A program made the position numbers and the translations under genes. 6,205 nucleotides of DNA, taken from IMG/VR virus record IMGVR_UViG_2671180753_000007; one strand, 5' to 3'. Position 1 is the first letter of the stretch. Each line of letters starts with the position of its first letter. Below are positions 2,852 to 6,082 of this stretch, piece by piece. The notes under the pieces are model-generated. The model made no database searches. It was not told the origin of the DNA and saw nothing but the letters and a program-made list of their open reading frames with translations. This DNA is from a virus. Taxonomy: Duplodnaviria > Heunggongvirae > Uroviricota > Caudoviricetes.

Positions 2852-3158
2852 ATTGCTCTGCGGCTTCGCTCAGAGCTGGCGTATGTTCCCGGCCTACTGA
2901 TTCACACAGGTAATCAACGAAACCGGACACCAGTTTTCGTTCGCGAGGCGTGATCGCCCCACCGACCGGAGTCCAGTAATCGAAACCCAGTTGCAGGAGT
3001 TTGAAAAAACGCTTGTGGAATGCGTAGTTACACACACGCTTAAAGTCTGCGTGTATCCACTCACCTATTTTGATTTGATGCAGAAAATCGCAACTCTCCG
3101 GCGTCGCCGGGAGAAGTAATCCGGAAGAGGTTTGTTTGATCAGTTGTATATGCGCCAT
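2805..3158 (-). pseudogene. DUF1367 gene 5' fragment (copy B), truncated by the IS3-family element
   Basis: The first 102 codons match the 979..1578 protein (MAHIQLIKQT...EAAEQ). The frame then runs into IS sequence after 2852 and stops. Confidence 0.85.
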
Positions 3159-3673
3159 CGTAGTTCTCCGCTGGCGCAGTAGAATGGGTGTTCAGCCCGT
3201 TATGTAGTATACCAGAATTAATGCCAATACTAACAGGATGCTCTGACTCGCAATTCATCCAGCAGTTTATCATTTCCCATAATGTCACTTACCCTCATCG
3301 GTAAAAAAATTGCCTTTCGACCATTACGATACATCATTGATTTTTTGGTTTCAGGGAAGTAATCCATTTCGACTATAACTGACAGGTCATCACGACGTAT
3401 GACTGCGTATTTACTACTAAATAGTTTCTTTATTTTTTCCACGATGCCTCCAGGTTTATAAGTACAAACGGTTATATCAACATAGAGACAAAAGGTGATG
3501 CTGCCAACTTACTGATTTAGTGTATGATCGTGTTTTTGAGGTGCTCCAGTGGCTTCTGTTTCTATCAGCTGTCCCTCCTGTTCAGCTACTGACGGGGTGG
3601 TGCGTAACGGCAAAAGCACTGCCGGACATCAGCGCTATCTCTGCTCTCACTGCCGTAAAACATGGCAACTGCA
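2852..3673. repeat. 822-bp direct repeat, copy 2
   Basis: Matches 1272..2093 (see copy 1). Confidence 0.95.
3230..3442 (-). CDS. Small hypothetical prophage protein (70 aa), second copy, possibly Rem-like
   Basis: Identical at nucleotide level to 1650..1862 and lies within repeat copy 2. Confidence 0.45.
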   Translation of the reverse strand: MEKIKKLFSSKYAVIRRDDLSVIVEMDYFPETKKSMMYRNGRKAIFLPMRVSDIMGNDKLLDELRVRASC

Positions 3674-3824
3674 GTTCACTTACACCGCTTCTCAACCCGG
3701 TACGCACCAGAAAATCATTGATATGGCCATGAATGGCGTTGGATGCCGGGCAACTGCACGCATTATGGGCGTTGGCCTCAACACGATTTTACGTCACTTA
3801 AAAAACTCAGGCCGCAGTCGGTAA
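3549..3824 (+). CDS. insA: IS1 InsA (91 aa)
   Basis: [18 protein letters not shown]...[11 protein letters not shown] matches canonical IS1 InsA as recalled. Confidence 0.95.
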
Positions 3825-4246
3825 CCTCGCGCATACAGCCGGGCAGTGACGTCATCGTCTGCGCGGAAATGGACGAACAGTGGGGCTATGTCGGGGCTAA
3901 ATCGCGCCAGCGCTGGCTGTTTTACGCGTATGACAGTCTCCGGAAGACGGTTGTTGCGCACGTATTCGGTGAACGCACTATGGCGACGCTGGGGCGTCTT
4001 ATGAGCCTGCTGTCACCCTTTGACGTGGTGATATGGATGACGGATGGCTGGCCGCTGTATGAATCCCGCCTGAAGGGAAAGCTGCACGTAATCAGCAAGC
4101 GATATACGCAGCGAATTGAGCGGCATAACCTGAATCTGAGGCAGCACCTGGCACGGCTGGGACGGAAGTCGCTGTCGTTCTCAAAATCGGTGGAGCTGCA
4201 TGACAAAGTCATCGGGCATTATCTGAACATAAAACACTATCAATAA
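3743..4246 (+). CDS. insB: IS1 InsB reading frame (expressed as the InsAB' transposase by -1 frameshift)
   Basis: 167-aa [19 protein letters not shown]...HYLNIKHYQ overlapping insA in the -1 frame. The AAAAAAC slippery site lies at 3800-3806. Confidence 0.9.
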
Positions 4247-4260
4247 GTTGGAGTCATTAC

Positions 4261-4437
4261 CTACCTAATGAAATAGACTATCAAAAAACGCTTGTGGAAT
4301 GCGTAGTTACACACACGCTTAAAGTCTGCGTGTATCCACTCACCTATTTTGATTTGATGCAGAAAATCGCAACTCTCCGGCGTCGCCGGGAGAAGTAATC
4401 CGGAAGAGGTTTGTTTGACCAGTTGTATATGTGCCAT
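4261..4437 (-). pseudogene. DUF1367 gene 5' fragment (copy C), truncated next to the IS1 right end
   Basis: ATG at 4437..4435 with SD GGAG. The first 51 codons (MAHIQLVKQTSSGLLLPATPESCDFLHQIKIGEWIHADFKRVCNYAFHKRF) match copies A/B, then the frame reads 7 unrelated codons and stops at the IS1 boundary. Nucleotide homology to copy B covers 4284..4437. Confidence 0.8.
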
Positions 4438-4475: not shown

Positions 4476-4763
4476 TCAATCCTGCTCAAGATTGTAGATG
4501 AGTTTATTCTTCAGCAAAAGCAGAAAACCAGCCTTAAAACCAATCTCTTTCAAAACCCGTAATGATGTGACAAATTCGTCCTCACGCAAAATAAAACCGT
4601 CCGTCAGAAGTCCATTACAAAAATAAAATAACACAGCACCGCTCTTCCTTTGTTGAGATTGCAAACATCTAATGCGGCAATGGCTGACAATCGCTCCATT
4701 CTCAACGCGCACAGCATAGAGGCCATTTTCACTAAAAATTTCACGCAATTCTTCGATTTTCAT
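4476..4763 (-). CDS. Small hypothetical prophage protein (95 aa), divergent Rem-like
   Basis: ATG at 4763..4761 with SD GGAAGGA about 8 nt upstream. It lies between hok and the DUF1367 fragment, the position rem occupies in Qin. Weak N-terminal similarity to the 70-aa ORFs (..LREIFSENGLYAVRVENGAIV vs ..KKLFSSKYAVIRRDDLSVIV). Confidence 0.5.
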   Translation of the reverse strand: MKIEELREIFSENGLYAVRVENGAIVSHCRIRCLQSQQRKSGAVLFYFCNGLLTDGFILREDEFVTSLRVLKEIGFKAGFLLLLKNKLIYNLEQD

Positions 4764-4844
4764 CTTCAGAATCCTTCCAGATAAATAGCTCTCCCCTGTT
4801 CGGGGTCCATCCCTCTTCTCCCTGCGCGCTACTTAAGTGAGTCG

Positions 4845-4872
4845 ATTCTATCTGCGAAGGTGCGCGAATCAA
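4845..4872 (-). promoter_or_regulatory. Candidate sigma70 promoter for the Rem-like/DUF1367 transcript
   Basis: On the minus strand: -35 TTGATT (4872..4867), 16-bp spacer, -10 TAGAAT (4850..4845), about 80 nt upstream of the 95-aa ORF start. Confidence 0.25.
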
Positions 4873-4892
4873 ATTCACCGGAAATAAACAAC

Positions 4893-4935
4893 AAAAAACC
4901 CGCCGAAACGCTGAGAGATCACAGCGATGGGCGGG
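4893..4935 (-). terminator. hok mRNA 3' terminator
   Basis: On the minus strand: CCCGCC-CAT-CGCTG-loop-CAGCG-TTTC-GGCGGG followed by UUUUUU, about 80 nt downstream of the hok stop. Confidence 0.55.
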
Positions 4936-4941
4936 TTAAGT

Positions 4942-4956
4942 GCGGGTGCGTTGAGG
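4942..4956 (-). promoter_or_regulatory. hok mRNA fbi (fold-back inhibition) element, complementary to the 5' tac element at 5327..5340
   Basis: Plus-strand GCGGGTGCGTTGAGG (4942-4956) is the inverted complement of CCTCAAGCACCCGC (5327-5340) with one extra base. In the minus-strand transcript the 3' end can therefore pair with the 5' end, as in hok-family mRNAs. Confidence 0.45.
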
Positions 4957-5012
4957 ATGCCTGACACATCAGAGGTGGGCGGGGATGGGATCAGCTCCCC
5001 GCCCGGTCACTC

Positions 5013-5168
5013 TTACTTCCTGGATTCGTAGTCTACGAAGACAGCGACCTCCGTCTGGCCGGTTCGGATTCGTACCTCACAGAGGTCTTTCCTCGTTACC
5101 AGTGCCGTCACTATGACGGTTAAACAGATGACGATCAGGGCGATTAACATCGCCTTTTGCTGCTTCAT
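5013..5168 (-). CDS. hok: Hok/Gef-family type I toxin (51 aa), hokD/hokC-like
   Basis: MKQQKAMLIALIVICLTVIVTALVTRKDLCEVRIRTGQTEVAVFVDYESRK: a single transmembrane helix and the conserved RKDLCEV.IRTGQ.EVA motif of Hok/Gef proteins. SD AGGAG lies 9 nt upstream of the ATG. Confidence 0.85.
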   Translation of the reverse strand: MKQQKAMLIALIVICLTVIVTALVTRKDLCEVRIRTGQTEVAVFVDYESRK

Positions 5169-5225
5169 AGCCTGCTTCTCCTTGCCTTTCGGCATGTAAG
5201 AGGCTAACCTACATGTGCAAAGCAT
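5013..5225 (-). CDS. mok: mok-like in-frame upstream reading frame overlapping hok (70 aa)
   Basis: ATG at 5225..5223 gives MLCTCRLASYMPKGKEKQA fused in frame to Hok, resembling the in-frame MokC arrangement of chromosomal hokC as recalled. Confidence 0.45.
   Translation of the reverse strand: MLCTCRLASYMPKGKEKQAMKQQKAMLIALIVICLTVIVTALVTRKDLCEVRIRTGQTEVAVFVDYESRK
5182..5210 (+). promoter_or_regulatory. Candidate sok antisense promoter
   Basis: Plus-strand -35 TTGCCT (5182-5187), 17-bp spacer, -10 TAACCT (5205-5210), antisense to the mok/hok translation initiation region. The position and hexamers parallel the plasmid R1 sok promoter as recalled from memory. Confidence 0.4.
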
Positions 5226-5290
5226 GAAATTGGCCTCAGATTAATGTTAAGCGTCTTGCCGGACGCGTAATGTTAACTGGGGCTTTTCTC
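5217..5290 (+). ncRNA. sok: Candidate Sok antisense RNA (3' end uncertain)
   Basis: Would start about 7 nt after the -10 at 5205-5210 and run antisense to the mok start and hok leader. No clean terminator hairpin with a U-tract was found, so the 3' end is approximate. Confidence 0.3.
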
Positions 5291-5344
5291 TATCTGCCTT
5301 TTGGTGTTCATGCCTGAAGCAGATAGCCTCAAGCACCCGCAGTC

Positions 5345-5374
5345 ATTCTACTTACCTCGCCAATATGAAATCAA
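5345..5374 (-). promoter_or_regulatory. Candidate hok mRNA promoter
   Basis: On the minus strand: -35 TTGATT (5374..5369), 18-bp spacer, -10 TAGAAT (5350..5345). The predicted transcript start GCGGGUGCUUGAGGCUAUCUGC resembles the 5' end of plasmid R1 hok mRNA and carries the conserved 5' stem (plus-strand inverted repeat CTATCTGC/GCAGATAG at 5291-5327). Confidence 0.45.
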
Positions 5375-5395
5375 TCAGAAAGGTGCCCCATAAAA

Positions 5396-6082
5396 TCACT
5401 CCTTCTCTTCTTTACCGTAGTGGAGTTGACCAATTTTGATAAGAGGGCGTCCCTGAGATTTGCGGTGTAGATTGGTATCGCGCAGAGAATACACACAGCC
5501 ACAATATTCCTGCTGATAGAATTTTTCGCGCTTGCTGATTTCAATCATACGGGACGAGCCGCCCTGCTTGCGCCAGTTATAATCCCAGTACACCATGCCC
5601 GGATAATGCGCGACGGCTCGCCGCCCACAGTCGTTAACCTGCTGCATATTTTTCCAGCGTGAAATGCCCAGTGAACTGCTGATCACACTGAAACCATTTT
5701 CAGCGGCGTACAGCGCTGTCCGCTCAAAACGCATGTCAAAACACATGGTGCAACGGATCCCTCGTTCGGGCTCCCATTCCATTCCTTTGGCTCGTTCAAA
5801 CCAGTTGTCTGTGTCGTAATCAGCATCAATAAACGGCACGCCGTGTTGTTCAGCAAAGCGAATATTCTCATCCTTACGAATTAAATACTCTTTCTGAGGA
5901 TGAATGTTCGGGTTGTAGAAAAAGATGGTGTAGTCGATTCCCGAGGCCTGAAGCGCCTCCATCACCTCACCGGAACATGGAGCACAGCAAGAGTGCAGTA
6001 GTAGTTTGTTTGCCCCGTTTGGGAGCTCCAATTTGGGCCGTTTGAAATCAGCAACTGTCATAAATATGTTTATTGGGGTCAT
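5396..6082 (-). CDS. queH: QueH/DUF208-like protein (putative epoxyqueuosine reductase family), 228 aa
   Basis: Intact 228-aa ORF with Cys-rich motifs [20 protein letters not shown] and EYCGCVYSL, which fit the cluster-binding motifs I recall for QueH (DUF208). No obvious SD precedes either candidate start (M1 at 6082 or M8). Confidence 0.55.

Follow-up and report, generated by a model that had tools for sequence, protein, structure and literature searches.

A probable complete hok/mok/sok type I toxin-antitoxin locus of the hokD/hokW subgroup in a cryptic lambdoid prophage of Shigella type

The hok/sok system of plasmid R1 is plasmid-borne, and its role in post-segregational killing has been proven. 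A related system, hokW-mokW-sokW, is found in the Stx2 phages 933W and Sp5 (VT2-Sakai). HokW of Sp5 was reported to be toxic and to be neutralised by sokW expressed from its own promoter, and mutation of this promoter eliminated the antitoxin activity; the system depended partially on RNase III and Hfq and had a role in lysis after induction with mitomycin C (PMC8621323). In E. coli K-12, hokD (also called relF) is located downstream of relBE in prophage Qin. According to a passage of PMC12214031, the K-12 hok loci other than hokB are thought to be inactivated, the cause being insertion elements in hokA, hokC and hokE and a genomic rearrangement in the one locus left, for which Pedersen & Gerdes 1999 is cited there. 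Because the other loci are eliminated in this way, the rearranged locus should be hokD.

The window studied here is a stretch of 6,205 nucleotides from the virus record IMGVR_UViG_2671180753_000007 (Caudoviricetes). Its minus strand from 5374 to 4893 was interpreted, with a probability of about 0.88, as a type I toxin-antitoxin module of the hok/mok/sok kind that is structurally complete and belongs to the prophage-borne hokD/hokW subgroup. The locus is known from prophages as hokW/hokD and is present here as its Shigella allele; annotation and tests of it in a close relative have been published. An earlier note had listed a promoter, a tac sequence, a 5' stem, mok and hok frames, a sok promoter, a post-stop hairpin, an fbi element and a terminator for this strand. 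All of them were found in the sequence and in the list of open reading frames at the same coordinates, in the order and at the spacing of the family. The claim in that note that the locus is a complete member of the hok family was upheld by matches to Rfam and Pfam models and by a fold backed by covariation. The Rfam model RF01794 matched positions 5338-5163 on the hok strand over its entire length (model positions 1-157 of 157) with 117 bits, the gathering score being 59, and E = 5e-27. This model is named 'sok', but it describes the hok-sense leader, the real Sok gene lying antisense within that leader.

The closest comparison is provided by hokW-mokW-sokW. From the -10 hexamer to fbi, the window is about 91% identical in nucleotide sequence to 933W and VT2-Sakai, which are identical to each other across this region. 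The Hok of the window and HokW share 50 of 51 residues (the exception is E50R) and the unusual C-terminus VDYES. Both loci have the same in-frame mok of 70 codons, and both are located in a lambdoid prophage. The annotated 5' end of sokW corresponds exactly to position 5217 of the window and its 3' end to approximately 5287, while the starts of mokW and hokW correspond to 5225 and 5168, respectively. The 933W locus diverges upstream of the -10 hexamer and again right after fbi, and it lacks the CCCGC...GCGGG terminator; it is flanked by L0139 and a ygiW-like gene, whereas the window has queH and rem in these places. Within the locus, eight positions differ in the region of the Sok 5' tail and the mok start.

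The comparison with K-12 hokD gave a different picture. Its position is orthologous, since rem and the DUF1367 gene (ydfU) follow it as they follow the locus in the window, and it shares the hok coding sequence, fbi, the terminator stem and the rem leader with the window. However, queH rather than relBE lies upstream in the window. The earlier note had contrasted this locus with K-12 hokD, and pairwise alignment with MG1655 agreed with it: homology begins only at the hok Shine-Dalgarno (SD) sequence (approximately 5182), and all K-12 sequence before that point belongs to the 3' end of relE. Consequently, relE replaces the promoter, tac, the 5' hairpin, ucb, the mok start, and the sok -10 hexamer and transcript there. 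The C-terminus of Hok also differs (TAYEPEE in K-12 hokD and VDYESRK in the window), and the K-12 terminator has a short TTCG loop. This alignment fits the published view that K-12 hokD was rearranged. The truncated relBE-hokD form of K-12 was considered for the window and discarded, as the full leader is present and there is no relBE upstream. The suggestion that an intact hokD-type module had been kept here was likewise sustained, given that the whole regulatory region is retained, unlike in the K-12 copy.

Alignment with R1 hok/sok, which the earlier note had proposed, revealed the same elements in the same order and the same predicted closed fold. Both toxins belong to the Hok/Gef family, but they are only distantly similar; for HokW, an identity of 44% with R1 Hok is given (PMC8621323). 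The mok and hok AUGs of R1 proper are separated by 58 nt and are out of frame (numbering of PMC9841398), whereas in the window the distance is 57 nt and the frame is shared; in addition, the Sok hairpin of the window is approximately 20 nt longer than that of R1 in the RF01794 alignment. E. coli hokC/mokC/sokC (gef) has an in-frame mok of 69-70 codons, a toxin with 80% identity and the same leader architecture. It differs in its core-chromosome location and its shorter Sok hairpin, and in K-12, hokC is separated from its fbi by IS186.

The hok toxin gene occupies positions 5168-5013 of the minus strand, encodes 51 amino acids and is preceded by the SD sequence AAGGAG (5183-5178). Its product matched the Hok/Gef profile PF01848 over the full length with 79.9 bits against a cut-off of 22. 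The same protein is recorded as HokD in RefSeq (WP_014532198.1), and an identical E. coli copy is annotated as hokD. The mok frame extends from 5225 to 5013 on the minus strand and comprises 70 codons; its ATG at 5225 follows the SD sequence GAGG (5237-5234) at a distance of 8 nt. It is in frame with hok, remains open through the hok start and ends at the common stop codon; the annotations of mokW and mokC follow the same pattern. The mok ATG lies 57 nt upstream of the hok ATG, as in most relatives, and its position was retained in 31 of 32 aligned loci, the locus MAG_L020 having ATA in that column. Among these loci, the distance between the two ATGs is 56, 57 or 58 nt, so that mok is in frame 0, +1 or +2 relative to hok, the in-frame arrangement being the commonest. 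This variation agrees with the view that what counts is translation of mok and not the Mok product. An open reading frame of 43 amino acids on the plus strand (4985-5116), antisense to the 3' half of hok and also overlapping the hairpin after its stop codon, had no independent support and was dismissed as spurious.

Upstream of the coding region, a consensus scan predicted the hok/mok promoter, of the sigma-70 type, at 5374-5345 of the minus strand, with the -35 hexamer TTGATT (5374-5369), a spacer of 18 nt and the -10 hexamer TAGAAT (5350-5345). Nine of the 12 hexamer positions agree with the consensus. This was one of only two promoter-like sites in the interval 4700-5600; shuffled sequences contained 0.8 ± 0.9. 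The -10 hexamer is at a constant distance from the GGGTGC start across the relatives. The 5' end of the hok mRNA was placed by alignment to position 1 of RF01794 and to the start of the R1 hok mRNA, and the predicted full-length transcript (5338-4893, minus strand) comprises 446 nt, its 3' end being the U-run of the terminator.

The leader begins with the tac element GGGUGCUUGAGG (5338-5327), which pairs with 4956-4944 in the minimum free energy (MFE) fold and has compensatory changes across the family. It is followed by the conserved 5' hairpin at 5326-5290, with a stem formed by 5326-5319 and 5297-5290 that corresponds to consensus columns 13-20 and 58-65. In the alignment of 32 loci, 99.6% of this helix was paired, and two of its pairs were changed on both sides. 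The ucb (anti-SD) element GCCCCA at 5283-5278 has as its MFE partners positions 5233-5238, i.e., the mok SD region, and the corresponding consensus helix (columns 72-84 and 113-125) contained four compensatory pairs.

The putative sok promoter was read directly from the plus strand at 5182-5210. It consists of TTGCCT (5182-5187), a 17-nt spacer and TAACCT (5205-5210); its -35 hexamer overlaps the hok SD sequence on the opposite strand, and the promoter points into the mok start region. It was absent from the output of the consensus promoter scan of 4700-5600 because its -10 hexamer, TAACCT, matches the consensus at only three of six positions. It was nevertheless accepted because both hexamers are identical to those of the tested sokW promoter of 933W and Sp5; the sole difference is one base in the spacer. 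The predicted Sok RNA extends on the plus strand from 5217 to approximately 5287, ends that map to those of the annotated sokW (933W, VT2-Sakai), and is approximately 71 nt long. It was predicted to consist of a single-stranded 5' tail of 15 nt over the mok AUG, a long hairpin and a UUUU run, and a free 5' tail with a terminator hairpin is the canonical form of a Sok RNA. Its fold had a free energy of -28.6 kcal/mol (z = -4.7), and none of 200 shuffled sequences was equally stable. These features argue for a Sok gene with its own promoter, the product of which would be complementary to the mok initiation region.

At the other end of the transcript, a GC-rich hairpin of 9 bp follows the hok stop codon (5004-4977, minus strand), in which GGGCGGGGA (5004-4996) is paired with UCCCCGCCC (4985-4977). 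The consensus helix (columns 363-370 and 382-389) contained three compensatory pairs, and by analogy with R1, this structure is likely the 3' protective hairpin of the processed mRNA. The fbi element CCUCAACGCACCC (4956-4944, minus strand; 13 nt) is complementary to the 12 nt with which the transcript begins. Its distance from the stop codon was conserved in 30 loci, amounting to 45-62 nt in the relatives and 56-70 nt in the window, where fbi is farther from the stop codon because the post-stop hairpin is larger. The transcript ends in a terminator at 4937-4893 (minus strand), composed of the stem AACCCGCC/GGCGGGUU (4937-4930 and 4904-4897) and a U6 run (4898-4893). A simple scan of 4700-5600, which allowed loops of up to 8 nt, detected no terminator; this reflects a limit of the scan because an insertion of 23 nt enlarges the loop to 25 nt. 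The terminator was revealed by folding and by comparison of 3' ends as a stem plus U6 with an inserted loop. Its hairpin had a predicted free energy of -22.3 kcal/mol, compared with -11.3 kcal/mol for that of K-12.

Folding of the predicted mRNA (5338-4893) gave an MFE of -189.6 kcal/mol. The tac-fbi pairing that the earlier note had suggested looking for was present in this structure as a helix of 12 bp with one bulge (4956-4944 with 5338-5327), together with the ucb/mok-SD helix and pairing of the hok AUG with downstream coding sequence. Only three of 200 shuffled 3' UTRs yielded a duplex as good as tac/fbi. An R1-type locus folded in the same manner had an identical architecture.

Comparative support for this fold was obtained from hok loci drawn from phages, plasmids and E. 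coli genomes, and from one genome per species. Thirty-two loci from Escherichia, Shigella, Kluyvera, Citrobacter, Pantoea, Photorhabdus and an IncF plasmid were aligned with MAFFT from the mRNA start to fbi. Unguided RNAalifold analysis of this alignment recovered the tac/fbi helix, the 5' hairpin, the ucb/mok-SD helix, the post-stop hairpin and the hok-start helix, which connects the start of hok with the end of its ORF. In the consensus structure, 96.7% of cells were paired, compared with 36-45% when the partners were slid by 1-3 columns. Of its 71 pairs, 20 were changed on both sides, and none of 500 shuffles reached any of the observed measures. The covariation was evident in tac/fbi itself: GGGUGC/GCACCC in Escherichia is replaced by GGGCGC/GCGCCC in Photorhabdus and Pantoea, the second half occurs as GAGG/CCUC, GAGA/UCUC or GAAG/CUUC, and one pair of the consensus helix was UA in 19 loci and CG in 12. 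MAFFT offset the second half of this helix by one column between Escherichia, which has a bulged C, and Photorhabdus; only the first six pairs were therefore counted formally, the remainder being evaluated for each locus with RNAduplex. Given the covariation and the unguided recovery, it may be concluded that the fold is a conserved, selected feature, and the copy in the window has all of it. Folding and covariation both support the part of the model that concerns the closed mRNA.

These data also bear on whether the likeness could be accidental or partial, i.e., whether the window contains a hok-like ORF lacking working RNA control. Such an explanation could draw only on the weak sok -10 hexamer and the failed simple terminator scan. 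Chance resemblance was rejected because of the Rfam E-value of 5e-27, obtained over the full model, and because the fold is supported by covariation; moreover, sokW, mokW and hokW map onto the window nucleotide for nucleotide. With the RF01794 match, the RNAalifold recovery and the covariation counts refuting it, this explanation was considered extremely improbable, and the complete module remains the preferred reading.

By homology with R1 hok/sok and Sp5 hokW-sokW, the following mechanism may be proposed for the complete module; where transcription starts, how the 3' end is processed, how Sok acts and that Hok is toxic are inferred from these homologues, and any biological role in this strain is putative. 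The promoter at 5374-5345, presumably of moderate strength, would give the hok mRNA of approximately 446 nt. In this mRNA, pairing of the 5' tac (5338-5327) with the 3' fbi (4956-4944) would keep the molecule closed, ucb (5283-5278) would hold the mok SD sequence and the hok start would be buried, so that no translation would occur. Slow trimming of the 3' end would strip the terminator and fbi, after which the 5' end would refold onto ucb and free the mok SD sequence. Translation of mok from 5225 would then cross the hok SD sequence and AUG and switch on synthesis of Hok, a presumptive inner-membrane toxin of 51 amino acids. The short and unstable Sok RNA, transcribed on the plus strand from its own promoter (5217 to approximately 5287), would pair with the mok start, block translation and render the duplex a target of RNase III. 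Sok synthesis could cease when the element is lost, when transcription is arrested or when the prophage is induced; the pool of stable mRNA would then be translated, and the cell would be killed or lysed.

The refolding step was also addressed by thermodynamic prediction. In the MFE folds of mRNAs truncated at the 3' end (at 4958, 4965 or 4975), the mok SD sequence was still sequestered. When it was forced to be free, the best fold of the 5' domain was the tac/ucb open stem, which was only suboptimal, 5.2 kcal/mol above the closed fold, and thermodynamic prediction of this kind cannot decide a kinetic switch between tac-ucb and tac-fbi. In the experimentally active hokW, the gap between the open and closed folds was 5.1 kcal/mol, and truncation likewise did not release the mok SD sequence. 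Because the validated hokW behaves alike and the switch is kinetic, the unreleased mok SD sequence was not taken as a defect.

Several features distinguish this allele from its relatives. The promoter is 10 bp shorter than in the queH-linked copies of phage HannyBb, E. coli O18 and E. albertii, owing to a deletion between GCGAGG and TAAGTAGAAT whose junction lies between 5355 and 5354; this length corresponds to one helical turn. The -35 hexamer of the relatives, TTGGCG at a spacing of 17 nt, is lost here, and the deletion brings TTGATT to a distance of 18 nt. As a sequence match, the predicted hok promoter is real and of recent origin. In the terminator loop, the window has an insertion of 23 nt (4930-4908) at a place where the relatives have CCCGC-TTCG-GCGGG. 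This insertion, found in only three of 55 loci (L001, L009 and L010, all of this lineage), folds as a small inner hairpin, so that the hairpin of the terminator becomes longer and branched. The hairpin after the hok stop codon exceeds that of 933W and O18 by 7 nt. The promoter deletion, the terminator insertion and the larger post-stop hairpin were present in all of 13 genome records with near-identical copies of the locus.

It is conceivable, though improbable, that the allele has been re-tuned and not simply inherited, with the exchange of the -35 hexamer, the terminator insertion and the divergence of the Sok 5' tail and mok start from co-resident hokD-type paralogues leading to an altered hok:Sok ratio, slower 3' processing and insulation from cross-talk. 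If this were true, the allele would be a specific regulatory variant of hok/sok, insulated from other Sok RNAs in the cell.

The distribution of the locus was studied. Both the exact 51-aa and the exact 70-aa product were found on at least 1000 contigs each, under the names HokD or Hok family toxin, and these contigs were mainly from Shigella sonnei, S. flexneri and S. boydii; exact matches to the protein and the locus were present in S. flexneri and S. sonnei records. In the 13 genome records, the 495-nt locus had 0-2 substitutions, while the flanks differed by IS insertions. This near-invariance among Shigella genomes may be due to recent common ancestry rather than selection. Of 5426 complete E. 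coli genomes, 3823 (approximately 70%) had a match that spanned at least 80% of the 501-nt locus. Prophages of E. coli and Shigella commonly contain complete loci of the hokD/hokW type, and the truncated K-12 hokD is the exception. Intact versions of this type are the norm and have been described previously, so both the kind of system and, in effect, the locus are known.

The genome is of Shigella type, and the locus is part of a cryptic lambdoid prophage with many IS elements, in which it is flanked by queH and a rem-like gene. The upstream side comprises a replication module in addition to queH, and the downstream side encodes rem, DUF1367, YbcO and a Q-like antiterminator. The prophage is broken by IS1 and IS3-family elements (IS1, IS600 and IS2) and by triplication of a segment, and it carries pseudogenes. 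IS elements interrupt the prophage of related genomes as well; the DUF1367 gene has been both disrupted and triplicated, and FDAARGOS_943 has a split terminase. When the whole window was used as the query, none of the E. coli genomes found had its arrangement of IS elements; the exact matches in S. flexneri and S. sonnei records make a Shigella genome the probable source.

In such surroundings, the locus could be structurally complete yet silent or strongly attenuated owing to the promoter deletion, the terminator insertion or both, which would have altered the synthesis, stability or processing of the hok mRNA, and it would then be a harmless relic in a decaying prophage. The two changes are specific to this allele, the prophage around it is full of IS1, IS600 and IS2 and contains pseudogenes, and hok loci are often disabled, as K-12 exemplifies. 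Furthermore, intact chromosomal hokA, hokB and hokC tested by others caused no post-segregational killing (bioRxiv 10.1101/2025.08.07.668861). However, a TTG-type hexamer is still found 18 nt from the unchanged TAGAAT, with nine of 12 consensus matches, and the terminator retains its stem and U6, its hairpin being predicted to be more stable than that of K-12. All 13 copies are free of stop codons, frameshifts and IS insertions, and neither tac/fbi and ucb/SD nor Sok and the ORFs are damaged. A silent relic is possible but doubtful. By analogy with its homologues, the allele, with its promoter deletion and terminator insertion, is possibly functional.

Another explanation is that the module acts in the manner of Sp5 hokW-sokW: upon induction, Sok would be lost and Hok would aid lysis so that more phage is released, with no role in stabilisation or defence. 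The closest characterised relative does act in this way (PMC8621323), and it has 91% nucleotide identity, 50 of 51 identical residues and a lambdoid prophage as its location in common with the window. Nevertheless, the position in the phage genome differs, 933W having other neighbours and no canonical terminator, and productive induction is unlikely from an IS-interrupted prophage with a broken DUF1367 gene and a split terminase. A role in phage release is unlikely here because the prophage is broken by IS elements and segment triplication, and we give this explanation very little weight. For the complete module, selfish retention or the lack of a current function is likelier than a role in phage release.

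The finding has little importance beyond correct annotation of the locus. RefSeq records of this allele contain the hokD CDS alone, and the mok frame, the Sok RNA and the boundaries of the hok mRNA could be added to them. The promoter deletion and the terminator insertion constitute a small natural experiment on the tuning of hok/sok, which is of interest to specialists only.

The surroundings of hok in the prophage were analyzed. The toxin gene was found directly downstream of queH, which encodes an epoxyqueuosine reductase (6082-5396, minus strand; QueH Pfam match of 220 bits). More than 1600 E. coli records contained the queH-hok junction, as did all 10 of the Shigella-size genomes examined. 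A terminator scan allowing loops of at most 8 nt found no terminator between queH and the hok promoter, which would make transcriptional read-through from queH into hok possible. Directly past the hok terminator, the promoter scan revealed a promoter-like site, TTGATT-16-TAGAAT (4872-4845, minus strand), with the same hexamers as the hok promoter. This site was followed on the same strand by a leader conserved with K-12 (4844-4764) and by a Rem-like ORF (4763-4476; PF27490 Rem).

On the minus strand at 35-122, directly downstream of a Q-like antiterminator gene (812-138, minus strand), a GC hairpin followed by a U-run was observed. It coincided with Rfam matches to Trp_leader (23 bits) and isrK (20 bits). 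Both scores were below threshold, and the element is probably a tR'-type terminator of the late operon leader instead of a member of one of these two families.

A segment comprising the 5' portion of the DUF1367 gene, together with the sequence upstream of it, occurred in three 300-nt copies (1272-1571, 2852-3151 and 4131-4430). Compared with the first copy, the other two were 97% and 61% identical. Interspersed with these copies were two IS1 sequences, one complete and one partial, and an IS3-family transposase fragment (the segments 1940-2150, 2329-2808 and 3549-4246 belong to the same mosaic). This arrangement was found in no E. coli genome when these genomes were searched with the whole window, and it points to a cryptic prophage scrambled by IS elements.

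The truncated relBE-hokD arrangement was also considered. In the Kluyvera sp. locus L042, the region upstream of hok was similar to the 3' end of K-12 relE and unlike a hok leader. Therefore, judging by sequence similarity, this arrangement is not restricted to E. coli K-12.

Within hok, the Tyr47-Glu48 codons TACGAA (5030-5025, minus strand) were identical in all 32 aligned hok loci, without variation even at synonymous positions, and fell within a segment predicted to be unpaired in the consensus fold of these loci. The hexamer contains the UACG motif, described in earlier editing literature as the target of A-to-I editing by TadA. In hokC, hokD and hokE, the tyrosine corresponding to Tyr47 is recoded to cysteine by editing (PMC12214031).

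The Rfam model RF01794, named 'sok antitoxin', matched the hok-sense strand. Since the model starts at +1 of the hok mRNA and extends as far as the hok AUG, its match is a marker of the hok leader, and the matched strand should not be taken for that of Sok. When close hokD-type loci were compared, substitutions were concentrated at 5236-5210, both between the SD and the AUG of mok and in the codons at the start of mok. This segment is the counterpart of the Sok 5' tail. Three such loci (L010, L015 and L017) were found in the single genome of S. flexneri SFBU1023. Clustering of substitutions in this segment could allow cross-reaction between co-resident Sok RNAs to be avoided.
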